Made by a program: the position numbers and the translations under genes. From Candidatus Micrarchaeota archaeon (lineage in GTDB: Archaea > Micrarchaeota > Micrarchaeia > Anstonellales > Bilamarchaeaceae), in assembly GCA_040753215.1 (NCBI GenBank), contig JBFMEZ010000013.1, positions 18,911 through 82,910 of the forward strand: a stretch of 64,000 nt of DNA. The letters are read 5' to 3'. Positions 9,389-63,999 of the stretch are shown here, piece by piece (positions within the stretch are counted from its first letter, which is position 1; the number at the start of each line of letters is the position of its first letter). The notes beneath the pieces were generated by a model that searched no databases, was not told the origin of the DNA, and saw nothing but the letters and a program-made list of their open reading frames with translations.

Positions 9389-9435
9389 TTCCGTTTTCCG
9401 TTTTCGGTTTCCAGTTTCGCGTTTTGTTTCCGTTT
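9389..9435. repeat. degenerate heptamer tract GTTTCC(A/G), representative of at least 13 dispersed tracts
   Basis: TTCCGTTTTCCGTTTTCGGTTTCCAGTTTCG; others at 10342, 28298, 29680, 30554, 30777, 42539, 46974, 48632, 49528, 51977, 54921, 56823, 57340, 62597. Confidence 0.85.
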
Positions 9436-26153: not shown

Positions 26154-26267
<114 letters not shown>

Positions 26268-26507
26268 TCCTTTTTACACCGTAAAGCTCGCCATAGCTCG
26301 CTTTACTCTGCCGTTGGGTTGCCCTCGCTCACTCCTCGTTCGCTCGGGCGCAAAAAGGAGACCAAAAACCTCCAACCATGTGATTTCACTACTTAGTCAG
26401 TTGTGGCTTACATGGATGGGACTATAGACCGATGTTTGCGAACCGGTGAACAAAAACCTCAAACCGTCCGCCGACACATTTATAATTTTCTCTCTATAAA
26501 TCTGCGC

Positions 26508-28218: not shown

Positions 28219-29088
28219 ATGCACATCCTTTTCTCCTCCAAAAACCCTGCAAGCAACAATATTGCGCAGAGGCTCATGGAGATGGGCTTCAGCGAAGTTT
28301 CCGGTTCTCCGTATCCAGCTTCCAGAACGGGAAACTCAAACCGTGAAGCCCTGGGAAACCAGGGAAACGAAAGGGCGGCTTCACGGTTTGACAGGGAACA
28401 GGAAACCGGATACTGGGCTTGGAAAGGCCACAGGATGCTGGACACAAAGGTCGGGCTTATCCTTGATGTGCCCACGGATTGGGATGCGGATTGGCTTTTG
28501 GTGCTCTCCACGCACAGAAGCGAGAAGAAATTCCCCGCATTTACTGTGCACATTCCGGGCAACTGGGACAAGGCGGAGATGGGAGGCGAGCCCCGCACCC
28601 TCAACATTGCGTATGCGAGCAGGATGAAGGATTTGCTTCTTGCGCTTAGGGAGAAGAATACTCTGGGGTGGAATGTGAACCAAGAGGTCGACCATCATGG
28701 CCCCACCTGTAAACTTCCGATAATATTCATAGAAATAGGGAGTTCGGAGGAGGAATGGGTGAACCCTAAGGCGGCGGAAATAGTTGCGGAAGCGGTGATA
28801 GATTCCATAAATGAGAAGAAGCTCTATCCATCCTATGTTGGAGCGGGAGGGGGGCATTATGCGCCCTTCTTCACGAAATTGATGCTGGAATCCGAGGATG
28901 CGTTCGGGCACATAATTCCAAAATACCAGGCGGCGAACATCGGTGCGGATACGCTGAAGCAAGCGAAGGAGAAGAATGTGGAGAGGGTGGATACGCTGGT
29001 TTATGAAAACAAATCCTTCAGGGCAGGCGAGCGGGACAGGTTGTTTTCGATAGCGAAAGAGATTGGGCTGGAAGTTGAGATTCGCTAG
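28219..29088 (+). CDS. dtdA: archaeal D-aminoacyl-tRNA deacylase carrying an in-frame repeat insertion
   Basis: S..NPAS.NI, LSTHRS...P.FTVH.PGN, EVDHHGPT, F.EIGS.EEEW, GGGHYAP.F, GHI.PKY. Confidence 0.93.
   Translation: MHILFSSKNPASNNIAQRLMEMGFSEVSGSPYPASRTGNSNREALGNQGNERAASRFDREQETGYWAWKGHRMLDTKVGLILDVPTDWDADWLLVLSTHRSEKKFPAFTVHIPGNWDKAEMGGEPRTLNIAYASRMKDLLLALREKNTLGWNVNQEVDHHGPTCKLPIIFIEIGSSEEEWVNPKAAEIVAEAVIDSINEKKLYPSYVGAGGGHYAPFFTKLMLESEDAFGHIIPKYQAANIGADTLKQAKEKNVERVDTLVYENKSFRAGERDRLFSIAKEIGLEVEIR
28336..28391. repeat. palindromic element, subfamily A copy 1 (intragenic, in frame)
   Basis: TCAAACCGTGAAGCC-26 nt-GGCTTCACGGTTTGA, perfect 15-bp inverted repeat. Confidence 0.9.
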
Positions 29089-29695: not shown

Positions 29696-29752
29696 TCAAA
29701 CCGTGAAGCCCTGAGAAAAAGAGGGAAACGAATGGGCGGCTTCACGGTTTAA
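29696..29752. repeat. palindromic element, subfamily A copy 2 (intergenic)
   Basis: TCAAACCGTGAAGCC...GGCTTCACGGTTTAA flanked by GGGAACCGGAAAC and CCGAAAACTGAAA. Confidence 0.9.
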
Positions 29753-30451: not shown

Positions 30452-30550
30452 AGCCAGGGGAGGGAATCGAACCCCCCTATGCCGGTTTCTTCTGTGGGAT
30501 TTCTCCCCCTGGAGCTGCAGCCGGCCACATAGCCTATCTGTCACCCTGGC
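30452..30550 (-). tRNA. tRNA-Cys(GCA) with a 28-nt intron at 37/38
   Basis: GCCAGGG/CCCTGGC acceptor, U discriminator, GCCGG-CTGCAG[intron]A-CCGGC, TTCGATT T-loop. Confidence 0.92.
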
Positions 30551-30652
30551 AGGCCAGTTTCCGGTTTCCAGTTCCCGGTTTCCAGAATCTGGCCTGGCAA
30601 TACTCTGGTGGGATTAAGGTATTAAAAAGCTACGCCGCTATTTTACCCTGCT

Positions 30653-30758
30653 GGGCCCATAGCTCAGGCTGGTTAGAGCGACGGTCTTATATGGCCTGCT
30701 CTAATACAACAGGTTCTAAGACAGCCGTAGGTCTGGAGTTCAAATCTCCATGGGCCCA
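30653..30758 (+). tRNA. tRNA-Ile(TAT) with a 31-nt intron at 37/38
   Basis: GGGCCCA/TGGGCCC acceptor, ACGGT-CTTATA[intron]A-GCCGT, BHB central helix CTTA/TAAG, TATTAAAA box about 25-33 nt upstream. Confidence 0.93.
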
Positions 30759-31172
30759 ATCTCATTAATTTTGTTGCCGGTTTCCGGTTTCCCGTTTCCG
30801 GAAACTACGTCTGCAAAATTAGGTTTTTCTATTTCCTTTTTTGGCTTGTTTTTGGGGGGTTTCAAATATCTTGGGTTTTGGGCCCTACGGTTTTTGAAAT
30901 CCATATGTTTTTCACCTCATTTCTTGATATTTTTTCTTGATGTTTTTATACTTTTAGGGAGCATGTTTCCGATTAACACGCTCCGCTAGGCACGCCTGTT
31001 GCACGAGACGCGTCAGGCAACGGCCGAAAAAGCCTAGCGCGGAGCCGGTTTCACCTTATAACGTTCTGTATCGCTTCGCGATAACTGGCAGAAACCAGCG
31101 GGTTTCCGCCATCCGGTTCCTTGCTTTGGGGCTTATTTCAGCCTCAATCCATTCCAATTTCAAATTTCCTAG

Positions 31173-31610
31173 CTAATCATCGTCATCACCCCCACTTATC
31201 GCGTGTTTGAGCTTGCAAAGCATCGAACGGACACGCACTAGGCAAGACATGAAATTGAGATGCTCCCTCTGCGGGATGATTTTCAGGGAATTGCACAAGT
31301 CGAGCCAATATTCGGTTTCGTTGGCTTCGCCTATGCAGGTAACCAGCTTCTGGTTCTGTGCCTTCTTGGAATCAATCGCTCCCATCTCCGCCAGGTTCGC
31401 GCAGATGGAAGACGCGGAGGCAAGGAGCTGCTCCTTCGCCCTCCTGCTCATCTGCTTGTCTTCCATAAACTCAAAAATATCTTTTGACAGGCGGAAAGCC
31501 TCCTCATAAACCTTCAAATTCTTGAAGTTCTGCATAACCTCACCATTTTCCGACTTCGCGGCTCTGCTCGTAGAGCGCCCATTTCCTTTCATCAACCTCA
31601 ATTTTCCCAT
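31173..31610 (-). CDS. four-helix-bundle protein (TIGR02436 / IVS-protein-like family)
   Basis: FKNLKVYEEAF.LS, EQL...ASSICANLAE, ..GEANET.YWLDLC. Confidence 0.9.
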   Translation of the reverse strand: MGKLRLMKGNGRSTSRAAKSENGEVMQNFKNLKVYEEAFRLSKDIFEFMEDKQMSRRAKEQLLASASSICANLAEMGAIDSKKAQNQKLVTCIGEANETEYWLDLCNSLKIIPQREHLNFMSCLVRVRSMLCKLKHAISGGDDDD

Positions 31611-31662
31611 TTTCTTCCATGTTTTTCACCACTTCCCTTCCCCGGCTTCTCCTTTCGGGGAA

Positions 31663-31943
31663 GTTTTAGAGCGAGCTTCACTCCGAAGCCCGCGGTTTGA
31701 CGTTTTACGGGCTGAAAGGAGTGAAGCGAGCAAAACTTTCCCACGTCGCAGAAGCAGAGGTCGCTCGTTCGGTGTGAGCGATTATTCGTTTAGGCGAAGC
31801 CGACCTCGGAGCGAAGGCGAAAATGCACATTAATGGTTTCGGTCATTAGACCGAACCCGAAGGGCTCGACCATTAAGTGCTTTTCGCCGAAGCGGAGAGG
31901 GAAACGATTAATGCGAGCACGCCGGAAGGCGAGAACGAGCGAC
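31663..31943. other. highly structured non-coding region (nested inverted repeats; possible ncRNA or MITE/REP-like element)
   Basis: GCTTCACTCC/GGAGTGAAGC (31675-31727); GTCGCTCGTTC/GAACGAGCGAC (31760-31943) enclosing GGCGAAAA..GCAC..TTAATGGT/ACCATTAAGTGCTTTTCGCC and TTCGGTC/GACCGAA. Confidence 0.75.
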
Positions 31944-33124
31944 TATATCACTGAAAGACCGCCAACAATTCTCTTGGTTAAGTCCGATATCCGAGAAAAT
32001 TCCTTATCAACTATCTGCCCGATGGCTTCCCTAATCGAATTAAAGCATTTTCTGCCCGTGCTTAATGAAATTGTTGCATTTGCAGGCATGTCAATAGGAT
32101 GCCCAATTCTTGAAAGCAAATAAACATCTACATTTTCTACAAATGGGAATTCTCTTACAACCCTTTCAGCGATTTCAAATGCAAGAACCGAGTAGATTTT
32201 TCCAGTATGGCTTACCGGATTTTTGCCAGCAGTCGCTTCTAATGTCATCGGCCTGAAAGGAGTAATCAATCCGTTTGCACGGTTCCCTCTCCCGACCGAG
32301 CCATCGTCACCCATCTCCGCACTCGTACCGCTCAAAGTCAGGTATATTGAACCGGCTTCTTCATTATCCGCATTGTTTACCTTTACTCTTACATTTCCGA
32401 TTTCTCTGGTTTCGGCAAAATCTATCACCTCGCGCTCTATGGTCTTTTTGGCTTCTATGTATTCATCCATATTCGTTATATGCCTGGAAACAATCGCAAT
32501 TGCAATAGTAAGCTCTATCCCATCACCGTTTCGCAATCCCATTACCTTTACATCCTCGCCCGCCCAAGGGTATCTCGCCTTAAACTGTTCCGCGTTCAGA
32601 TATTTCTCAACTTCCAATACCAGTTTTTCGAGCCTGCTTAGTGGTGCATAGCCAACCCCAAAACTCGTATCATTGGCTAGTGGAATGCCCGGTCTTCCTG
32701 ACATCTCATCCCACTTCGGCCAGATCTCAGTGATGGTGGATTGTATCGCTACGCCCTTGGAAAGGTCCAGATGCCTTACGCTCCTTCTGATGTGCTCTTC
32801 GGTTGCTTCTCTTGCGATTTCTTCCACAGGAACGCCCCCAAATGCCCTCCCGCTTAATACTATCCGAATTGGTTTCGTAAACCGCCCGCCCCCGAATTCC
32901 ACTTCCGTTGCACCGCCACATACCAGCCCCTTATCCACATTATGATGCCTTACCCTGCTGAATTTGTTGATGTATGCTTCACTTAGGCGACGGCTTACGT
33001 TTTCCATTATGCCGTCTATCAGCGTATCTGGATGGCCGATGCCCTTCCGCTCGACCATTTCAACAGGTCGCTTATGTATCGTTGTCCCGCTGTTCCTTTC
33101 AACAATTATACTTCTCACGTGCAT
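31943..33124 (-). CDS. mat: archaeal-type S-adenosylmethionine synthetase
   Basis: EMVERKGIGHPDT, HHNVDK, P.ANDTSFGVG, GEDVKVMG.R, YLT..GTSAE.GDDG.VGRGNR, AGKNPV.H.GKIY. Confidence 0.96.
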   Translation of the reverse strand: MHVRSIIVERNSGTTIHKRPVEMVERKGIGHPDTLIDGIMENVSRRLSEAYINKFSRVRHHNVDKGLVCGGATEVEFGGGRFTKPIRIVLSGRAFGGVPVEEIAREATEEHIRRSVRHLDLSKGVAIQSTITEIWPKWDEMSGRPGIPLANDTSFGVGYAPLSRLEKLVLEVEKYLNAEQFKARYPWAGEDVKVMGLRNGDGIELTIAIAIVSRHITNMDEYIEAKKTIEREVIDFAETREIGNVRVKVNNADNEEAGSIYLTLSGTSAEMGDDGSVGRGNRANGLITPFRPMTLEATAGKNPVSHTGKIYSVLAFEIAERVVREFPFVENVDVYLLSRIGHPIDMPANATISLSTGRKCFNSIREAIGQIVDKEFSRISDLTKRIVGGLSVI

Positions 33125-36160: not shown

Positions 36161-36189
36161 GAGCGCCGGAAGGCGAGAACGAGCGACTA
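36161..36189. repeat. partial copy of the 3' end of the 31760-31943 structured element
   Basis: GAGCGCCGGAAGGCGAGAACGAGCGACTA matches about 31915-31945 except for a 2-nt gap. Confidence 0.85.
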
Positions 36190-39430: not shown

Positions 39431-40159
39431 ATGGACATTTCGATAATGGAAGACCTCGGGCTTACGCAGGCGGAAATCAAGGTGTATATGGCACTACTGG
39501 AGCTTGGAAGCACGACCGCAGGAAAGGTGGTGGAGCGCTCAGGGCTCCAGAACTCGGTCGTGCACAGGGCACTGAACTCCCTTATAGAAAGGGGGCTGAT
39601 AAATTACATACTCGAAGGAAGAAGGAGGACCTACCAGGCCACTGACCCAAAGAACTTCTTCAATTTCATAGAAGACAAGAAGAAGAGGTTTGAGCAGGTA
39701 CTGCCCGAATTGAAAAAGAAACAGCAGCTGGCAGGGAAAAAGGAAGTTGCGACCGTATATAAGGGGCCGAGGGGGCTAAAGGAGGTCTACAATACGATAA
39801 TCGGCAGCAAGGCGAAAGAATACCTCACTTTTGGGGGAGGGAAGCCATGCGAGGATTTGCTTGGGACTGCGTGGTGGCTGAACATGCATAAGAGAAGGGT
39901 TGCGAACGGGCTTCCCGCCCGGCAGATTTACGATGAGACGGTGAGGGAAATAGGAAAGGAGGTAAATAAGATGCCGTTGTCCGAAGTGCGCTTTGTTTCC
40001 AAGGAATTCGCGCAGCTGCAGGAAACGGTAATCGCAGGGGATTACGTGGCGATTAATGTGTTCACCGAGAGCCCCTATGGCTTCCTTATAAGGGACAGGA
40101 TAGTGGCAGATGGGTACAGGAAGCATTTTGAGCTTCTTTGGAAGCTGGCAAAGAAATAA
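39431..40159 (+). CDS. TrmB-family transcriptional regulator
   Basis: LGLT.AEIKVY.ALLELG, VHRAL..L.E.GL, YQA.DP, G..GLKEV, F..LW. Confidence 0.9.
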   Translation: MDISIMEDLGLTQAEIKVYMALLELGSTTAGKVVERSGLQNSVVHRALNSLIERGLINYILEGRRRTYQATDPKNFFNFIEDKKKRFEQVLPELKKKQQLAGKKEVATVYKGPRGLKEVYNTIIGSKAKEYLTFGGGKPCEDLLGTAWWLNMHKRRVANGLPARQIYDETVREIGKEVNKMPLSEVRFVSKEFAQLQETVIAGDYVAINVFTESPYGFLIRDRIVADGYRKHFELLWKLAKK

Positions 40160-40162
40160 AAC

Positions 40163-40181
40163 GAGCACGCCGGAAGGCGAG
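40163..40181. repeat. third partial copy of the structured-element 3' end
   Basis: GAGCACGCCGGAAGGCGAG, identical to the 3' part of the 31760-31943 element, 3 nt after the TrmB stop. Confidence 0.8.
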
Positions 40182-40258
40182 GAAAAAGTTTGGAAACTTT
40201 GTCCGCTACTGGAAATCCCGGATTCCCGATTCAAGAATGAGAGACTATATCCTATCCT

Positions 40259-42127: not shown

Positions 42128-42540
42128 TCAAATCCCCTCCTGCATCTTCCTCACCTTCTCCAGCAGTTCATCATTATTCGCCCTCTCAATGCTCTCATAA
42201 AGCTCGTTCTTTGCAGTATGCACGTAAATCATCGTAGTCTGCAAGTTCGTATGCCGTGCAAACTTTGAGGCCAGAGCCACATTCCCCCCATTCTTCCTGC
42301 AGAAATTAGTAATCGCATAATGCCGAAGGCTATGGGTGCTCAACCTATACAGCGTCTTAGGACTTTCCCCAACGCTGTACCCGTAAACCTCATCCAGCTT
42401 GGCCTTCTTCACGTATTTCATGAAAAATTTCCTTGCGGTCTGGGAGGTGATGTATGGCTTTGTCTTGTCTGTCTTCGTCCCCTCCTCAAGGGAGAAGAAG
42501 AGGCTGCCTTGCCGAAAGGGATTGCGCTCTGCTGCAATCC
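42128..42540 (-). pseudogene. tyrosine recombinase/integrase C-terminal fragment
   Basis: HSLRHYAIT box II, ARHTNLQTTMIY catalytic His/Tyr; box I Arg region missing; 5' side ends in a heptamer tract. Confidence 0.85.
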
Positions 42541-42584
42541 GGAAACTCGAAACCAGGCACGGGAAACCCGTTCTTTCCGGCATT

Positions 42585-43205
42585 CTATTCTTTTTCCGGC
42601 GCAACAATCCTTTTTGCTAGGAAGAGAATTCTCAGCACGACCTCCAGCCCCATGAGCATGAGGAAAAACGGAAGCGCATCCCCTATGAGCTCCGCCATCT
42701 CCGCCAGCCGCTGCTCTATTATAAGCGGGGAGAATGTGGTCGGGGATGCGAGGAAAACCGCAAAAAGCGCTATGGGCACGGTTTTCGCCACATCAACCGC
42801 GATGTCCTCGTCCAAGTACGAGCAGATTCTTGTGGCTGCGACAAGCGATATCGAGATGAACATCATATCCGCAATGGAGGCGGTCTTGGATATGAAATAG
42901 AGGAATATGGTAAGCACGACGAACCAGACGAAAACCGCGAGAGGAAAGACAATCACGTACTCCAGCCCGAACTTCACCCTCTCCAGGACCTGCGGCACGA
43001 AGCCCTTGCCGACCTTCTTCCAGTCTATCTCGAATATGTTTCTCCTTGAGAAGGTTTTCCAGAATGTCCCGATGACGAGCGCATAGATGGTTATGGTGAG
43101 CACCATCATGGCCACGTTCGCCGTGCCCGCACCCAGCTGCGCCTGCAGCTGCGAGTAGAAGTTCCCGGCCGCTTCCGCCGCAACAAGAGTAAGGCTCTCT
43201 GCCAT
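42585..43205 (-). CDS. membrane protein of unknown function
   Basis: Four to five TM helices; ..RI.SY..ED.A.D.AK..P motif. Confidence 0.75.
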   Translation of the reverse strand: MAESLTLVAAEAAGNFYSQLQAQLGAGTANVAMMVLTITIYALVIGTFWKTFSRRNIFEIDWKKVGKGFVPQVLERVKFGLEYVIVFPLAVFVWFVVLTIFLYFISKTASIADMMFISISLVAATRICSYLDEDIAVDVAKTVPIALFAVFLASPTTFSPLIIEQRLAEMAELIGDALPFFLMLMGLEVVLRILFLAKRIVAPEKE

Positions 43206-43271
43206 GCGCCTGATAATCAGAAAAAGGTTAAATCGTTTGCCATTGTAACCATGGTTACATTACAATTCATT

Positions 43272-44580
43272 GTGAACTACCACCGGTCAAAGACCGGTGG
43301 CTTCCTGCTTCATAGAAGATACTTGCCCATTATGTTTATAATGGGTAGAGGTCTCCTCTCTGCAGGCGTTACTTCCCACAGTTCCTGCGGTAGCCATTTT
43401 TGCCAAACGGCCAGCTTGCTCGGTCGACCGTTTGGCAAACCTGAGTATGTTTATTGCTGCATTGAGGTCGCGGTGCATGGATGCGCCGCATGCGCATTTA
43501 TGCCATCTCTCTGCAAGCGATTTCTTCTGCACCAAACCGCAGCTGCTGCACGTCTGTGTTGTATGGGCAGGCTCAACCAGCACAACTTCGCAACCAGCAC
43601 TCTCAGCCTTGTATGCGAGCATGCTGCTAAATTCCGCCCAGCTGCAGTCCAGTACGGATTTTGCAAGGAATCCTTTTGCCAATCCTTTTGTATTCAGGTT
43701 TTCCATTGCAATGAAAGAATATTTTTCCACCAGCTTCCTGCTTGTTTTATGAAGGAAGTCCCTTCTTCGGTTCGCCAACTTTTCATAAGCCGATGCAACC
43801 TTCAGCCTTGCCTTTCTTCTGTTTTTGCTTCCCTTCTTTTTCCCGGAAAGGAAACGCTGCGCACTCTCCAGTTTTTCTTCGGCATTTTTCAGGTGCCGCG
43901 GGTTTTCCAGCATCGTTCCATCGCTGAGGCATGCGAAGTTCTCAATTCCAAGGTCGATTCCAACAGGCGGGCCGTCTTTCTTGGGAACCCGCTTCTCTTC
44001 TATTTCTGAAGTGAAAATGGCAAACCATTTCCCTGAAGGCATCCTCTTTATCGTGAGGGTCTTTATTTTTCCTGCAATTTCCCTGTGCTTTTCGATTTGG
44101 ATTTTGCCTATTCCCGAAAGTTCAAGCTTTTCATCCAGTACGAAGCCAAACTGTGGATATGTAAATGATTTCATCCTTTCCATGGTTTTGAACCTCGGGA
44201 AGCCTGCCTTCATGCCTGCTTTCCTTTTGAGCATCATGCCCCTCAGGCATTTTACGAGCCTGTCTGCAACGTTCTGCGCAACCTGGGAGAATAATGGTGT
44301 TCCTTTTGTCTGCAAATAGAGCTGCTGGCGCGTTGGAAATTTTCCTGTTTCCTTATAATATTTTTTTGTGTATTCTAGAAGGGAATTCCACAGCTCTTTG
44401 CACTCATGGAGGCATTCGCCCATTTGCTTTTCCTGGGACCTGGATGTGTAGAGCCGGAATTTCCATGCCCTTGTTCGCATATGCGACTCTGGCGCACGGC
44501 GGTTTATAAGGATTTCCCGGGTGTGATTCCAGTAATCGTTTATGGAGATTTTTGCATCCACCGGTCGCAGACCGGTGGAA
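43272..44580 (-). mobile_element. non-autonomous IS200/IS605-family (IS1341-like) element
   Basis: Related subterminal hairpins CCACCGGTC-N3-GACCGGTGG at 43280-43300 and 44558-44578; right end ...GGTAGTTCAC; tnpB only. Confidence 0.9.
43287..44480 (-). CDS. tnpB: TnpB RNA-guided endonuclease
   Basis: KFRLY, LWN..L, GFPRFK, RuvC-I VGIDLG, RuvC-II IAMENL, TTQTCS.CG...HKC.CG, RuvC-III HRDLNAAINIL. Confidence 0.96.
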   Translation of the reverse strand: MRTRAWKFRLYTSRSQEKQMGECLHECKELWNSLLEYTKKYYKETGKFPTRQQLYLQTKGTPLFSQVAQNVADRLVKCLRGMMLKRKAGMKAGFPRFKTMERMKSFTYPQFGFVLDEKLELSGIGKIQIEKHREIAGKIKTLTIKRMPSGKWFAIFTSEIEEKRVPKKDGPPVGIDLGIENFACLSDGTMLENPRHLKNAEEKLESAQRFLSGKKKGSKNRRKARLKVASAYEKLANRRRDFLHKTSRKLVEKYSFIAMENLNTKGLAKGFLAKSVLDCSWAEFSSMLAYKAESAGCEVVLVEPAHTTQTCSSCGLVQKKSLAERWHKCACGASMHRDLNAAINILRFAKRSTEQAGRLAKMATAGTVGSNACREETSTHYKHNGQVSSMKQEATGL

Positions 44581-45647: not shown

Positions 45648-46973
45648 GTGGACATAGACCCAGTGCGCAATTCCCTCTCAACGAAATCCTTCTTCTGCGA
45701 TTTCCGCCACCTCCGCATCTCTAGCCACACCGTGGGAATAAAGGACGGGGAGGCGGAGTGCAGGGAAGGCGTTGAGGAGGGAATTGCCGTGCGCGCATTC
45801 ATAAACGGCTCCTGGGGCTTCGCCTCCGGCCCTCTATCCGATTTCCACTCCCTCCTCTCCAGGGCCGAAAGGCTCGCTTCCTCCGGAAAGGGCAATTCCA
45901 TTTACCCTCCGCGCGAATCCGAGCTTTCCCATCCCGGAAAGGCCCCCCGTTTCCATCCTTCGGGCGCAGAGGACCTCATCTCCACAGGCAATGCTCTCTA
46001 CTCCGAGATGGAAAATGAAAAAATCCGCAACAGGCAGGTGCGCCTCTCCGAGCTCCTCACCCGCCGTATATACGCAAATTCCGCAGGCGCGCTAATGGAG
46101 GACGAATCCCTCCTCCTCTACTCCCGCTTCTCCTGCATAGGGAAGGAAGGGACCGTAACGCAGGAAGGCCGCCACACATGGGGCTCGCGCGAAAAATGGG
46201 ACGAAGAATCCCTCTTCTCCTCCGCAAGGGAATCCAAAAGAAAATGCCTCGATTCCCTCTCGGCTCTCCCACCCCCTTCCGGCACCTTCACAGCAATCCT
46301 GGACAACGAGATGGCGGGCGTGTTCGCGCACGAGGCGGTGGGCCACGCATGCGAAGGGGATGCAATAATGGAGCACTCATCAATTCTCGAAGGGAAGAAA
46401 GGGATGAAGATAGGCTCCGAACTCATAAGCATATGGGACTCTCCTGAAACAGAAGGCGCATTCGGCTCCTACTCTTTCGATGATGAGGGAATGCCCGGAA
46501 AGGCAGTGAACCTCATCCACCAAGGCACCCTCTCCGCCTTCCTCCATTCCGCGGAGAGCGCCCACTCGCTCGGCGAGCAGCCGAACGGCCACGCGCGCGC
46601 AGAGGATTTCAGCGTCCCCCCCATCGTCCGCATGAGCAACACCTATATAGAGCGCGGAGACCATAAGGTGGAGGAGCTCCTTGATGTGGATGAAGGGATT
46701 TATGTAAAGGGGATGAACGGGGGAAGCGTGGACACGATCACCGGCCAGTTCATGTTCCGCGCGGAGGAGGCATTCCTCATCCACAGGGGCGTCCTCGGGG
46801 ACCGCATCCGCGACCTCTCGGTCACAGGTACAATAACCGGCACCCTGAAGGAGGTGGATGCGGTCGGCAGCGACTTCCGGCTGAAGCCCGGCTTCTGCGG
46901 GAAGAACGGCCAGACAATGAACGTGAGCGACGGCGGCCCCCACATCCGCGTGCGCTCTATGAAGGTTGGCTGA
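45648..46973 (+). CDS. tldD: TldD/PmbA-family metalloprotease
   Basis: G.AVRA...G.WGFA, GVFAHEAVGHACEGD, GSY.FDDEG, RM.NTY, C.KNGQ...VSDGGPH. Confidence 0.93.
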   Translation: MDIDPVRNSLSTKSFFCDFRHLRISSHTVGIKDGEAECREGVEEGIAVRAFINGSWGFASGPLSDFHSLLSRAERLASSGKGNSIYPPRESELSHPGKAPRFHPSGAEDLISTGNALYSEMENEKIRNRQVRLSELLTRRIYANSAGALMEDESLLLYSRFSCIGKEGTVTQEGRHTWGSREKWDEESLFSSARESKRKCLDSLSALPPPSGTFTAILDNEMAGVFAHEAVGHACEGDAIMEHSSILEGKKGMKIGSELISIWDSPETEGAFGSYSFDDEGMPGKAVNLIHQGTLSAFLHSAESAHSLGEQPNGHARAEDFSVPPIVRMSNTYIERGDHKVEELLDVDEGIYVKGMNGGSVDTITGQFMFRAEEAFLIHRGVLGDRIRDLSVTGTITGTLKEVDAVGSDFRLKPGFCGKNGQTMNVSDGGPHIRVRSMKVG

Positions 46974-47023
46974 CCTTCCAGTTCCCAGTTGCCCGTTCCC
47001 GGTTTCCCGTTTTCAGCATCTGG

Positions 47024-48584: not shown

Positions 48585-48752
48585 AAAACTCTCTTCCCTA
48601 GAGAAAACGCGGGGAGGGCGCTCCCCCTATTCAGTTTACTGTTTCCGGTTTCCAGTTTCCGGAACCCTAAACGGGAAACCGGGAACTCTCTGACCCCCTC
48701 CCACTTCGCTCAGCAATGCTTTGCACGCACTCCTTACGCTATGTCTTCAAAA

Positions 48753-51656: not shown

Positions 51657-52589
51657 CTAACCTTTCCTTATCTTATACTCCTTCGTGATCTCCTTTATTC
51701 CCTCTTCCAATCTCCTTGGCTTAAACCCCAATTCCCTCCTCGCCCTCTCCCATCCGAACGCCCTGTCCCCGCCCAGTATCGCAACATGTTCTCTCGTAAG
51801 TTTCGGCTTCTTCCCGAAAAGCGCCCCCAGCTCCCGCACCCTTCCAATAAGGTTCGCCATCCAGAAAGACATGTGTTTTTTCGGGGGTGCAACCCCAAGC
51901 TCCCTGCACGCAATTCCATAAATCTCCTCCTGCGTTTTGCTCTCCCCGCAAACCACATAAGTCCCCTGCCCCGCGTCAGTTTCCAGTTTCCGGCTTCCAG
52001 TCTCCCCTCCCCCCGCGGCTGCCGCGATAGCCCGCGCCGCATCCTCCACATGCACGAAGGGAACCCTGTTCTTCCCGTCCCCTATAATGAACATCTTCCC
52101 TTTTTCCAGCATCCCCAGAATATAGAAATAATCCCCAAACTCCGGCCCATAGATGGTCCCAATCCTCAAAATCACGTGCCTCCCCTTCTTCCGCACAATC
52201 TCCTCCGCCTCCAGCTTGCTCCGCGAATAGGCCGAATCCGGGTGCGTGGGCGTCGCCTCATCAGCCGGAATCTCCTTCAATTTCTTCCCATATACAGAAA
52301 TGGAGCTCGCCAGCACGATCTTGCATCTCTCCGGAGAATTCTCAACAATCCTTCTCGTGAGCTCCACATTAGTTTTCCTCATCTCCCCCTCGTCCCAAAA
52401 TCGCATGGAGCCGGCAATATGAATAATACAGTCCGCATCCTTCAAAATCCTGCGCAAGCTCTCCGCCGAGAAGTCCGTAACAACCTCTCCCTTAAGCCCT
52501 TTTGCATTCCGGACCAGGGGCACCGCATCCACGAACCTGAGCACGTGCCTGCCCAATCTTCCAGAGGCGCCTGTAATGTAGATTTTCAC
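51657..52589 (-). CDS. NAD-dependent epimerase/dehydratase with a short repeat-derived insertion
   Basis: ITGASGRLG, H.AG, ASSISVYG, YSRSK, R...IYGP, FVHVED.A. Confidence 0.92.
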   Translation of the reverse strand: MKIYITGASGRLGRHVLRFVDAVPLVRNAKGLKGEVVTDFSAESLRRILKDADCIIHIAGSMRFWDEGEMRKTNVELTRRIVENSPERCKIVLASSISVYGKKLKEIPADEATPTHPDSAYSRSKLEAEEIVRKKGRHVILRIGTIYGPEFGDYFYILGMLEKGKMFIIGDGKNRVPFVHVEDAARAIAAAAGGGETGSRKLETDAGQGTYVVCGESKTQEEIYGIACRELGVAPPKKHMSFWMANLIGRVRELGALFGKKPKLTREHVAILGGDRAFGWERARRELGFKPRRLEEGIKEITKEYKIRKG

Positions 52590-54416: not shown

Positions 54417-55556
54417 TCATAACCCCCCATCAAATAGTATAGCACTTTCCCTGGTCCTTATCTTCTGCGACCTCACATCCGCAATCCTTTCCTTCACCGC
54501 GGCAATCCTTCCAGAAAATCCTATTCTCTCCCCAATCCGAATAAGGATCTCATCCACTGGTATATGCCTCCCCCCCAGCACCGAATTCCCCACAACCATG
54601 CATCCGCACGGCGCAATCCTTTTCAAATTCCGCAGCACCCTCTCCATGTCCGCAAAATACGTCCCCGCGATGGGGATATCCAGATAATCATCCGCCTCCG
54701 GAGGCGCATCCCCAAACGATTCCCCGGTTATGAAGCCCCTCACTTCTTTCGCCCGCATTATTTTCGTACTATCTTTTTCCATGGTCAATAGGCTCAGCTC
54801 CAGCCCATAAACTTTGGAATAATCTATATAGTTCAGGTAGGGCGGCGAGGTCACGAACGCATCCGCCTTCCAATCCTCGAACTCCCGCGCATCTTCCAAT
54901 TTTAATTCCGGCTCCACAGTCAGTTTCCTGTTCCCCGTTTCCGGTTTCCTTTCTCTCTCCCGCAAATCCGCAACCATCCTCTTCACTTTCCGTTTAAACG
55001 CATCCTTAACCGGCATGGCGCTTTTCGAGGGCTCCTCCCGCAAGACCCCCCCATCCTTTATGAAAAATCCCACCTGCGGCAAAATAGATAGCAGCGCAAG
55101 CAAAAACAGCCCGCCCACCCCCTCATTCTCAATTTCCTCAATGCTTTCCCTCAAATGTCGTATATCGTTATAGTTCCTCTTCCCGAAAAACCGCGAAGGA
55201 TGGAACAGCTCAAACTGCCATATCCACCCCGGCTCTTTCCGTTCCTTAAACATCCCTTTCAATTCCCTCTCCGCCTCCTCCGCGTCCTTTTCCGAATAGT
55301 CCGCGCATTTCGTTTTCGTCACAAACAGCGCGAGGGGCGAAACATCTATCCCAATCCCCTTCATCCCGTGCTCCTTCGCATAGAGCATAGTAGTCCCGAT
55401 TCCGCAGAAAGGGTCGAACACTGTCCCGCCCTTCACTCCAAGCTCGCCCAATGCCCACTCCACCAATTGCGGAGAGTATGCCTCCTTGTAATAGAACCAG
55501 TTGTGCACGGGAATATCCTTCGCAGGCTCGAAGGTGAAATAGTCCCCTATTTCCAT
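54417..55556 (-). CDS. orphan DNA amino-methyltransferase (N4-C/N6-A)
   Basis: H.W..YKEAYSP.LV, VFDPFCGIGTT motif I, VTSPPY motif IV, VVGNS. Confidence 0.88.
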   Translation of the reverse strand: MEIGDYFTFEPAKDIPVHNWFYYKEAYSPQLVEWALGELGVKGGTVFDPFCGIGTTMLYAKEHGMKGIGIDVSPLALFVTKTKCADYSEKDAEEAERELKGMFKERKEPGWIWQFELFHPSRFFGKRNYNDIRHLRESIEEIENEGVGGLFLLALLSILPQVGFFIKDGGVLREEPSKSAMPVKDAFKRKVKRMVADLRERERKPETGNRKLTVEPELKLEDAREFEDWKADAFVTSPPYLNYIDYSKVYGLELSLLTMEKDSTKIMRAKEVRGFITGESFGDAPPEADDYLDIPIAGTYFADMERVLRNLKRIAPCGCMVVGNSVLGGRHIPVDEILIRIGERIGFSGRIAAVKERIADVRSQKIRTRESAILFDGGL

Positions 55557-55606: not shown

Positions 55607-56821
55607 ATGGAAGGCGTGCAAAGAACACTCTTCGCATCCGCGGCACAGGATATAGCAAGAGAAATGGCAGGCAGGAGACTTAGTGCGCAGGGCAGAATGC
55701 ATTCCTCCGCCCGCCCCATGCTTTTCAGGAGGCTCAGGAAGTATTCCCATCCTATTTATGGCCGCACGAGTTCCGGCCATCCTATACTCACCTTCCCATT
55801 GGACGTGCTCAACGTGGATGCGCGCGACCCCGCGAACGTCAGGATGTTCTTCAGGAGGGAGGAGAGGCTCCCGGCTGATTTCAGGGCCGGTCAGCCGGTC
55901 CCCCGCAGGCACGTTATGCACGTTTCAGATATTTTCCATGCGGTCCGCCAGCTCGCGCACGTTGCCGAAACCCACCGGCAGGAGCGGGGAAAAACCAATT
56001 CCGCGCTCGAGCTCGTGGAGCAGATAAACGCGAAGCTCATGGTGTTCGCGCAGAATGCAAGGGGCACGGAGGCGGCGAAGGCGGCCAACCGGGAGATGGA
56101 GGCGATGCCCGAGATGAGGGCCCTTGCCTCGGCATACAAGCACATGGCCCTTGAGCAGCTCCAGAAGGCGCTCCGCCTTCTTGGGGAAGCGGAGAACAGC
56201 CCAAGGGCGAACCTGAAGCTCGGGGCCGCGTGCGCCTGTCTGGTCTCATTCCGCGCGCGCATGGGCGAATGGCGCGTGAGGCAGACCTTCAACATAGACG
56301 CTTACGACGAGCTGCGCGAGGCCTCCCTGCGCCTGCGCAGGGATAAGTACGTGCAGGGCCTCCTTGAATATTATGTTGAGATGCTCTCGGGCCCGAGGGC
56401 TTTCCAGGCCGCAAAGGCGGCTGTGGAGAACCACATACTTTCAGGCAAGCTCAGGGATTTCCATGGCTCAATACCAAAAGGCAGGGAATGGAGGAATGAA
56501 GCGCGCAGGCTCCTCTGCGCAATCGGCCTGTCCCTCCCGCAGGAATCCGCCACGCGGAAGCTGCTCAGGGGCGCATACAGGCTTGCAGGGGAGGGCACCA
56601 AGGAGGAATTCGAGGAGAGGATGGGAGCTATCACCAGGCCCCTTCTCGTGCGCGACCTTCCTTACGCCGCGGACGAGCTTGAGAGGTCCAGCGAGCCCTA
56701 CCGCATCCCAGTGATAGAAAAAATACGGTCCGGGTTCGCGGCAGTAGAGAAGAACACTCCCGCGGATGCGGTCCCGCTTTTCCAGGAAGCAGCCGAAATC
56801 CTCAGGAGGCCGGACCAGTAG
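55607..56821 (+). CDS. alpha-helical hypothetical protein
   Basis: Long ORF with TTTAAA box about 25-30 nt upstream; no known motif. Confidence 0.65.
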   Translation: MEGVQRTLFASAAQDIAREMAGRRLSAQGRMHSSARPMLFRRLRKYSHPIYGRTSSGHPILTFPLDVLNVDARDPANVRMFFRREERLPADFRAGQPVPRRHVMHVSDIFHAVRQLAHVAETHRQERGKTNSALELVEQINAKLMVFAQNARGTEAAKAANREMEAMPEMRALASAYKHMALEQLQKALRLLGEAENSPRANLKLGAACACLVSFRARMGEWRVRQTFNIDAYDELREASLRLRRDKYVQGLLEYYVEMLSGPRAFQAAKAAVENHILSGKLRDFHGSIPKGREWRNEARRLLCAIGLSLPQESATRKLLRGAYRLAGEGTKEEFEERMGAITRPLLVRDLPYAADELERSSEPYRIPVIEKIRSGFAAVEKNTPADAVPLFQEAAEILRRPDQ

Positions 56822-56871
56822 TCGGTTTCCCGTTTCCCGCTTCCAGTTACCCGTATTCGGTTGCCGTTCCA

Positions 56872-57283: not shown

Positions 57284-57339
57284 TCAAACCGTGAAGCCAC
57301 GGGAAACCAAGGGAACGATTGGGCAGCTTCATGGTTTGA
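57284..57339. repeat. palindromic element, subfamily A copy 3 (between divergent genes)
   Basis: TCAAACCGTGAAGCC...AGCTTCATGGTTTGA followed by GTTTCCCGTTTCCAG. Confidence 0.88.
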
Positions 57340-63768: not shown

Positions 63769-63816
63769 TTCCTTCACCAGTAGGAGTATCCGGCTGCTTA
63801 TGTGAACTACCACCGG

Positions 63817-63999
63817 TCAAAGACCGGTGGCTTCCTGCTTCGTAGAAGATACTTGCCCATTATGTTTATAATAGGTAGAGGCCTCCTCTTGACAGGCATA
63901 ACTAAACCGAACCTCCGCTCTTTCCGTCCCACTTCTGCTCTGGAGGTTCGGTTTACTTCCCGCAGTTCCTGCGGTAGCTCTTCTCAGCATATTTATCGC
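63817..63999 (-). CDS. tnpB: C-terminus of a second TnpB (partial)
   Basis: AINMLRRATAGTAGS[KPNLQSRSGTERAEVRFS]YACQEEASTYYKHNGQVSSTKQEATGL*. Confidence 0.88.
   Translation of the reverse strand, partial: AINMLRRATAGTAGSKPNLQSRSGTERAEVRFSYACQEEASTYYKHNGQVSSTKQEATGL
63903..63955. repeat. palindromic element, subfamily B copy 2 (in-frame insertion in tnpB)
   Basis: TAAACCGAACCTCC...GGAGGTTCGGTTTA perfect 14-bp IR; absent from tnpB copy 1. Confidence 0.9.

Follow-up and report, generated by a model that had tools for sequence, protein, structure and literature searches.

What does a stand-alone four-helix-bundle gene do beside a large structured non-coding element? Stand-alone genes for four-helix-bundle proteins of the PF05635 family are very common and have no known role. 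The one considered here lies in a 64-kb stretch of Candidatus Micrarchaeota (DPANN) DNA, which we call the window and whose positions are used throughout; Micrarchaeota is also the label on all nearest protein and DNA relatives of the window. A preliminary description of this stretch had related the protein to Avd, the accessory protein of diversity-generating retroelements (DGRs), and had proposed that gene and element form a module possibly linked to the spreading of repeats. We find that the element, a small open reading frame (ORF) and the gene make up a conserved cassette of about 1 kb, that the protein is of the Avd type, and that in this lineage the cassette often stands apart from any reverse transcriptase (RT). 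We favour, with moderate confidence, a role of the element as a leader acting in cis on the avd gene. L-numbers (L001 and so on) denote the comparison loci used in the analysis.

The cassette and its conservation

On the minus strand the cassette runs from elem2 through hp1 and a 26-codon upstream small ORF (uORF) to avd and a structured 3′ region. Its parts are as follows.

31760..31943, minus strand: elem2, a branched element of about 185 nt, recognized by its inverted-repeat arms, its folds and its conservation 5′ of avd
31920..31945, minus strand: 5′ end of elem2, a small hairpin and one closing arm; a terminator-like motif that is also found alone
31778..31793, minus strand: A/T-rich box (CUAAACGAAUAAUCGC) in the 3′ part of elem2, seen as invariant alignment columns
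31657..31742, minus strand: hp1, an 86-nt hairpin and the most conserved part, found by repeat search, RNAalifold and a covariance model
31637..31663, minus strand: hairpin B, an alternative pairing (CUUCCCCG ... CGGGGAAG) read from the sequence
31540..31620, minus strand: uORF of 26 codons, acidic and tryptophan-rich (MEENGKIEVDERKWALYEQSREVGKW), with its own GGTGA Shine-Dalgarno sequence; stop 4 nt before the avd ATG
31173..31535, minus strand: avd-type four-helix-bundle gene, 120 aa, isoelectric point (pI) 6.1, acidic C-terminal tail (PF05635, TIGR02436, AlphaFold model)
30960..31172, minus strand: structured, conserved region 3′ of avd with several hairpins (folding z scores -4.3 to -5.0)

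The hairpins and the closing repeat are real and well above chance. A perfect 11-bp inverted repeat spanning 31760-31943, an inner hairpin and an overlap of the structure's end with the mat stop codon had all been reported in the preliminary description, and all three are present. The arms of the closing repeat (31760-31770 and 31933-31943; 11 nt) are 100% complementary; the inner hairpin arms (31675-31684 and 31718-31727) pair at 10/10 positions within an outer stem of 31657-31667 and 31732-31742; and the stop codon of the mat ORF (31943..33124, minus strand, encoding an archaeal S-adenosylmethionine synthetase) occupies 31943-31945, overlapping the last base of the closing arm. Over 31611-31950 (340 nt), the plus strand folds at -147.5 kcal/mol (z -7.2) and the minus strand at -137.7 kcal/mol (z -6.4), with 0/100 shuffles as good on either strand. 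The region 3′ of avd (30940-31175) is structured too (z about -5); about 49 nt are inserted in it in the window and L110 when these are compared with the other relatives, and alternative hairpin versions of it occur. No known RNA family accounts for these structures: with Rfam 15 at gathering scores the only matches in the whole window were 5S rRNA and tRNA, and a search of 30500-32100 up to E 10 gave nothing credible. An RNase P-like reading of GGAGAAGCCGGGG was rejected on its wrong position and the lack of an Rfam match, as was a C/D-box small RNA reading of GUGAUGA near the uORF start, whose boxes are unconserved in the window sequence.

From 5′ to 3′, elem2 is composed of a small hairpin, a T/A-rich stretch, a long central helix, the A/T-rich box and the closing helix, with the central helix running into a three-way junction that bears two short capped hairpins. 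The 5′ hairpin reads CGCC-UUCC-GGCG on the minus strand and has a GNRA-type GGAA loop on the plus strand. An exact 26-nt copy of the 5′ motif is found at 36164-36189 and a partial copy at 40153-40184, and in about 16 of 40 loci elem2 starts at most 8 nt from the stop codon of a co-oriented upstream gene, which differs between loci. The A/T-rich box might be an archaeal TATA box and B recognition element for a transcript of hp1, uORF and avd.

The hp1 hairpin has a 10-bp central stem, a 2x2 internal loop with GCUCGC on each side, an inner GCCC/GGGC stem and a loop of 13-15 nt. The 5′ arm of hairpin B is at the same time the 3′ arm of the hp1 basal stem, and because the segment CUUCCCC is common to both, the two pairings are mutually exclusive. 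Hairpin B ends just 5′ of the Shine-Dalgarno sequence of the uORF. Its position is taken by hairpins of other sequence in L013, L011 and L104, and by U.G variants (CUUCCUC/GGGGAAG) in L088 and L089. The two exclusive pairings may work as a switch.

The uORF looks like a real micro-gene that would be translationally coupled to avd. An ORF of 25-28 codons stands in the same place in most loci (about 40), and its stop lies between 5 nt upstream of the avd ATG and a 1-nt overlap with it. Three sequence types are found, ending before the stop in ...DERKWALYEQSREVGKW, ...WDERKRADEDWARDIGRW and ...FDGIWNGDCYRDWFDSEVEE; they keep length and frame and share acidic, Trp-containing sequences. The true start of avd is almost certainly 31535 (MQNFKNLK...) and not 31610, since residue 30 of the long ORF is where the Pfam profile starts, homologues measure 117-124 aa and GGTGAGG precedes the ATG at 31535. 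Of the four-helix-bundle ORF first described, the family assignment therefore stands, whereas the call was too long: its part 31536-31610 overlaps the uORF in another frame.

The protein matches PF05635 at 1.3e-18 (67.6 bits, cut-off 33.8) and TIGR02436 at 1e-17 (64.3 bits, cut-off 24), and its AlphaFold (AF2) model shows four helices at a predicted local distance difference test score of 91.7. When this model was compared with solved structures by Foldseek, the best matches were the stand-alone family members 2RLD (template modelling (TM) score 0.83-0.88) and 2GSC, followed by the Avd chains of 8UB7 (TM 0.76-0.82) and 4DWL (TM 0.74-0.83). Its pI is 6.13, with 17 K+R versus 18 D+E.

The cassette is present in about 45 other Micrarchaeota loci, with the element directly 5′ of the orthologous gene. 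Against the loci of close homologues, blastn gave a single conserved block from 31943 down to about 30999, starting exactly at the closing arm, and a protein-based search (27 loci) found both structured parts directly 5′ of the gene in nearly all Micrarchaeota members. The reverse search, with a 21-nt piece of hp1, returned 31 metagenome contigs. The element is in 28 of them, the other three being chance 24-nt matches, and among the 28 the gene is present wherever the downstream sequence suffices, with the sole exception of L113, where a LAGLIDADG-like ORF (1500-2036) in place of avd starts where the small ORF would be. This fixed association bears out the idea of a gene and element module. 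The arrangement tolerates insertions at one point: L107 carries a group II intron (Rfam RF00029, RF02001) in sense orientation between hairpin B and avd, and L114 an insertion right after hairpin B at the same point. The hp1 covariance model (R1) matches the window once, at 31633-31748 on the minus strand with 114 bits, and has 0 matches in 57 bacterial PF05635 loci; a pattern search for hp1 in viral contigs gave no match. In 56 bacterial PF05635 loci, folding of the 200 nt upstream is unremarkable (median z -1.1; 3/56 below -3).

Covariation, which the preliminary description had named as a check, is clear in both structured parts. RNAalifold on 14 and then on 22 elem2 sequences kept the central helices, with many double substitutions (CG 13, UA 6 and GC 3 at one pair; CG 12, GC 7 and UA 2 at another). 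When the 22 sequences were laid on the structure of the window, 84.1% of cells were paired (76.5% in shuffled sets), 30/68 pairs were changed on both sides (18.9 shuffled) and 112 cells had double changes (36.6 shuffled), and 0/500 shuffles reached any of these values. Sliding the partners by 1-3 columns, as a control, gave pairing of 35-46%. Helices 4, 6 and 7 were 92%, 92% and 84.5% paired. For hp1, RNAalifold on 24 sequences gave 20 consensus pairs, 12 of them with compensatory changes, in divergent members.

Purifying selection on the Avd protein is strong: comparison of avd in the window with that in L005 gives a dN of 0.031 and a dS of 0.87 (ratio 0.036), and other avd pairs have dS of 0.6 to >1.5 and dN/dS of 0.04-0.09. 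Nucleotide identity between the window and L005 is 94.7% in hp1 and 81% in elem2. In L102, where the gene order is as in the window (asnC-PALP-unknown-mat-element-avd), identity is 64% for the mat protein, 81% for Avd and 82% (nucleotide) for hp1. The noncoding parts are conserved as strongly as coding DNA, with synonymous sites near saturation. Set against the high avd dS, these identities imply that noncoding sequence changes much less quickly than neutral sites do, and that the copies are old. Each structured part is present as a single copy and keeps a constant place relative to avd; purifying selection on these parts exceeds that on synonymous sites, and their pairings are kept by compensatory change.

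Reverse transcriptases beside and apart from the cassette

Avd orthologues 86-91% identical adjoin RTs whose template and variable repeats (TR and VR) differ only at adenines. RT-adjacent cassettes are of four distinct types (L001, L004, L087, L117). The RT gene ends 6-11 nt before elem2 in L004, L087/L112 and L089/L100/L117, and in L001/L002 the RT, template repeat and target gene are divergent from, and next to, the element. TR/VR mismatches fall at A only in L001, L002, L004, L087, L116, L117, L119 and L121 (in L004, 18 mismatches in 60 nt, all at A), and the VR differs between two samples of one contig (L001 versus L002). In this Micrarchaeota DGR lineage the RT start codon follows the TR within about 40 nt; an hp1-like stem-loop just downstream of the TR was sought and none was found, the post-TR sequence being conserved but unlike hp1. 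PF05635 is the commonest Pfam family in DGR neighbourhoods and is used to recognise Avd in surveys (PMC10053308). The fold (TM 0.74-0.83 to 4DWL and 8UB7) and the genomic context (orthologues whose neighbours are DGR RTs with A-mutated repeats) identify the protein as a DGR accessory protein of the Avd type, and the relation to Avd first proposed from the sequence is upheld.

In the window itself, where no RT had been noticed before, tblastn with two RTs of the clade and a hidden Markov model (HMM) of 28 full-length clade RTs likewise find none in 64 kb, and no TR/VR pair occurs in the avd flanks or anywhere in the window. A 103-nt repeat (43271-43373 and 63801-63903) was rejected as such a pair: its mismatches are not at A, and it belongs to a TnpB/IS605 OrfB 3′ end. 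RT is also absent from L005-L027 as searched with tblastn and the clade HMM, and ten orthologous loci with 7-8 kb on each side (L006, L009, L010, L013, L015, L017, L018, L022, L027, L123) hold neither an RT nor a TR/VR pair. The RT cassettes L116, L119 and L121 (contigs of 50, 199 and 490 kb), which have A-mutated repeats, have no avd and no hp1 within 7 kb. RT and avd are, then, often unlinked in this Micrarchaeota clade, and Avd might act in trans on an unlinked RT cassette. Many orthologous loci stop at a contig edge near the cassette, which fits hypervariable DNA nearby but proves nothing.

The RT genes of the clade have a peculiarity of their own: a single constant site, which falls between RT residues about 130 and 146, is occupied by a long homopolymer, namely G8 in L004 (about 1535-1545), G9 in L117, G10 in L119, C9 in L001 and an in-frame G10 in L116; it is interrupted in L121. 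The reading frame shifts at the homopolymer in the RTs of L004, L117, L119 and L001. Among the best 120 RT homologues, the predicted protein has about 190-260 aa in 86 cases and is full-length (at least 330 aa) in 29. The homopolymer looks like a phase-variable on/off switch, or else like a systematic assembly error.

Possible roles of the element

We lean towards reading the locus as a conserved Avd cassette of a Micrarchaeota-specific DGR lineage, with a structured leader acting in cis and without linkage to an RT. Among possible roles of the element, that of a cis-acting leader is best supported because its constant partner is avd itself; its position 5′ of a Shine-Dalgarno sequence and the alternative pairing beside that sequence both fit. 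The DGR of Bordetella phage has a defined stem-loop with flipped-out bases that the Avd pentamer clamps, and a putative Avd-bound stem-loop was predicted in 207/278 DGRs (bioRxiv 10.1101/2023.10.23.563531). On the favoured reading, elem2 and hp1 would form the leader of a uORF-avd operon, in which the 5′ hairpin of elem2 and the T-rich stretch would be a terminator-like insulator ending the upstream gene, and hp1 an operator-like site that an Avd pentamer, plausibly, recognises. Binding of Avd would shift the equilibrium between hp1 and hairpin B and so set the translation of uORF and avd, a feedback control. The Avd made from this locus would serve an RT-TR-target cassette elsewhere in the genome, if the genome has one. 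Transcription from the avd strand would agree with several pairs that alternate between Watson-Crick and G.U, with the UUCG, UCCG or UGCG loops of one hairpin in many sequences, and with the sense insertion of the group II intron right after hairpin B.

Several observations weigh against this reading. The pI of 6.1, versus a mean of 9.5 for DGR Avd proteins (PMC5758913), weakens the case for nucleic-acid binding. In L001 the element is on the strand opposite TR and RT, and because it lies opposite the TR there it is not part of the template RNA. A different hairpin replaces hp1 in L014, L016 and L018, and hp1 was not found in L019 and L022-L026. From the sole real metatranscriptome came a few low-identity contigs that cover avd and none that cover the element. 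The strand is equivocal as well: the mostly Watson-Crick pairs hold 18 G.U cells versus 27 A.C cells, a balance between strands; the plus strand folds slightly better than the avd strand; and loop types conflict, with GNRA on the plus strand of one hairpin versus UNCG on the minus strand of another (by eye). On the plus-strand side, 5′ hairpin loops are GGAA, GAAA or GCAA and hp1 gains tandem G.A pairs.

DGR studies have sought an avd encoded away from the RT and found none (PMC5758913). The Micrarchaeota lineage unites an unusually conserved avd, a covarying partner element and micro-ORF that travel with it, and frequent unlinking from the RT, and true DGR cassettes of the clade often have no adjacent avd. 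Avd could here be a separately housed, strongly conserved hub, an operon of a 26-aa peptide and Avd that is regulated by its own structured RNA of ~300 nt or built upon it, and that serves unlinked RT-TR-target cassettes switched by their homopolymer tracts, or it could have an RT-independent function co-opted by DGRs; we put this forward tentatively, as a possible but doubtful view. The cassette offers a concrete, testable protein-RNA pair and a way to ask whether Avd acts in trans. For the DPANN archaea, with their small number of known regulatory RNAs, the element is a candidate new RNA motif.

The element could instead be the gene of a separate small non-coding RNA, on either strand, that forms a ribonucleoprotein (RNP) with the four-helix-bundle protein and works apart from reverse transcription, DGRs having settled beside it or borrowed it in a few genomes. 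Such a history would fit a cassette that mostly has no RT within 7-8 kb (nor any in the 64 kb of the window), that is more conserved than its housekeeping neighbour, that encodes a protein of a pI atypical of Avd, and whose adjoining RTs are merely 63% identical to each other and stand in two orientations relative to it; the more stable plus-strand fold, with the tandem G.A pairs of hp1, would suit it too. We nevertheless consider it unlikely. That four independent cassette types adjoin an RT, 6-11 nt separating RT stop and element, would hardly arise by chance, and the location just before a Shine-Dalgarno sequence and a small ORF, together with the alternative pairing, resembles a leader. 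No promoter or terminator can be assigned to the element, and no reads cover it in the one metatranscriptome.

Quite unlikely, in our judgement, is an element that acts mainly as DNA, either as an insulator (terminator and avd promoter) or as a recombination or insertion site, with the pairings formed in cruciforms or single-stranded DNA hairpins. The compensatory changes in the internal helices of a 185-nt three-way structure exceed what a terminator and promoter need, UNCG-type loops recur (by eye) on one hairpin of the avd strand, and no att-like repeat of the tRNA end was found. A role in DNA would, for its part, account for the balance of G.U and A.C cells, as expected if neither RNA strand is favoured, and for several signs of rearrangement: the 5′ edge of the element is exactly where synteny is lost, and the element abuts upstream stop codons; a group II intron and a LAGLIDADG-like ORF are inserted directly past hp1 or hairpin B; integrase genes lie within a few kb in L001, L116, L117 and L123, and 10 kb away in the window, where the gene may be split; and the 5′ motif recurs alone after other genes, a 26-nt direct repeat flanking the 4.2-kb mat-asnC block. 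This repeat is exact (31920-31945 and 36164-36189) and the block consists of mat, an unknown gene, a PALP enzyme and an AsnC-type regulator. The block adjoins the cassette in L102 too, its proteins being 92%, 68%, 30% and 64% identical, which is very uneven. The 26-nt motif may mark insertion or recombination.

The preliminary description had also suggested that the protein could be linked to the spreading of repeats, with co-occurrence of heptamer tracts as a check. The tracts of the window and the tRNA gene next to the cassette are as follows.

9393-9420, 28393-28413, 30557-30584, 30773-30800, 46981-47015, 48634-48661, 51979-52006, 54923-54950 and 56825-56852, 8 of 9 on the plus strand: heptamer tracts (GTTTCCN)3-5
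30653..30758, plus strand: intron-bearing tRNA gene of 106 nt, convergent with the cassette (Rfam tRNA, 55.8 bits; ARAGORN)

These nine are all the tracts of at least three GTTTCCN units in the window. Related loci have about 0.5 tracts per 10 kb, versus 0.04 per 10 kb in bacterial loci (about 14-fold). In avd-bearing loci 15 of 20 tracts stand 58-620 nt downstream of avd, in 14/50 loci, and tracts begin 4-50 nt past several plus-strand gene ends (46973 to 46981, 56821 to 56825, and the tRNA gene from 30758 to 30773). They thus appear to be T-rich, terminator-like sequences tied to the tRNA gene and other gene ends and not to the cassette; they are a lineage-wide intergenic feature, and their nearness to the cassette arises because the convergent tRNA gene ends there. 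Although the window has three occurrences of a short stretch of the element (26 to about 40 nt) and the tracts lie downstream of avd as described, a mobile, dispersed repeat of the type of a miniature inverted-repeat transposable element (MITE), spreading with the tracts, is refuted by the single full copy (one hp1 model match in the window, one copy per locus elsewhere, fixed in position relative to avd), by a dS of 0.6 to >1.5 between copies, which leaves no room for recent spread, and by tracts that follow plus-strand gene ends and the tRNA gene throughout the window, while chance hairpins are excluded by the folding z of -7 and the covariation, so that either origin is hardly credible.

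Surroundings of the cassette and comparison with known systems

A convergent tRNA gene lies downstream of avd in many loci (Ile-GAU, Arg-UCU, Val-CAC, intron-bearing Ile). For the one in the window ARAGORN reads the anticodon as AAU at position 37, which by eye could be UAU (Ile); a 100% identical gene is found in L092, L098, L105 and L110, and its 3′ end has a 26-nt imperfect inverted copy at 30878-30903. An att-like copy of the tRNA 3′ end delimiting an integrated island was sought and not found. Upstream of a possible small ORF (30740-30904, minus strand; MDFKNRRAQNPRYLK...) stand a TATAAAAA box and the Shine-Dalgarno sequence GAGGTGA, both conserved in close relatives. The start of the peptide is seen again in L004 and L005, while N-termini differ elsewhere; the true extent of the ORF is doubtful, as its 3′ part crosses a heptamer tract and, on the opposite strand, the tRNA gene. 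A family of 56-nt palindromic repeats (TCAAACCGTGAAGCC...GGCTTCACGGTTTGA) is intergenic at 28336-28391, 29697-29752 and 57284-57339 and flanked by heptamer-like GGAAAC units.

The GC content is 0.39-0.51 between about 31 and 45 kb versus 0.50-0.63 in most of the remaining window. A Phage_integrase-family ORF at 42128-42607 (region 42128-43205, minus strand) matches the C-terminal part of the profile only; a 206-aa ORF that matches no family lies before it and overlaps it, so the gene may be split. It is adjoined by a TnpB/IS605 OrfB (Cas12f-like) gene (43287-44561, minus strand), whose last 100 nt, with a hairpin, recur at 63801-63903, close to the window's end, with 92% identity, probably as part of a second copy. 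A lone 5S rRNA gene is found at 26154-26268 (plus strand), and no 16S or 23S rRNA gene occurs in the window.

Several known systems are close to the cassette. The protein has the same PF05635-family four-helix-bundle fold as Avd of Bordetella phage DGR (bAvd 4DWL, RNP 8UB7; TM 0.74-0.83), but only 10-14% sequence identity to it, and a pI of 6.1 versus about 9.5. The avd genes of DGRs have been described as very poorly conserved (PMC5758913), whereas the Micrarchaeota family is highly conserved (60-98% identity). Unlike in DGR Avd systems, the conserved structure here lies 5′ of avd and not just downstream of the TR, the cassette is mostly unlinked from an RT, and an additional conserved small ORF precedes avd.

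The best matches in both sequence and structure are the stand-alone PF05635/TIGR02436 proteins (the 'S23 ribosomal protein family', 23S rRNA intervening-sequence proteins; 2RLD at E 8.5e-08, 2GSC), which are likewise encoded by small stand-alone genes with no known function. Some members of this family sit inside structured RNA, namely the intervening sequences of 23S rRNA. The gene in the window, in contrast, lies between mat and a tRNA gene, and the only rRNA there is 5S. Bacterial PF05635 genes also differ in their upstream regions, which show no unusual structure (median z -1.1), and their loci have no hp1 match.

Ribosomal-protein leaders and the operator hairpins of phage coat proteins are autoregulatory messenger RNA leaders bound by their own product. 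The cassette would resemble them in placing a structured 5′ region with exclusive pairings before the ribosome-binding site of a gene from a nucleic-acid-binding family; it differs in that the element is larger (about 300 nt) and may lie in part upstream of the transcription start. Retron msr/msd share with it a structured element of about 180 nt with terminal inverted repeats, beside an RT gene in some loci. Where the cassette has an RT, however, this lies upstream of the element or diverges from it and is not downstream, the RT clade has DGR-typical TR/VR pairs, and the element has no Rfam match. What is new relative to these systems is that the Avd cassette has a conserved structured element and a micro-ORF of its own and is usually found away from the RT.

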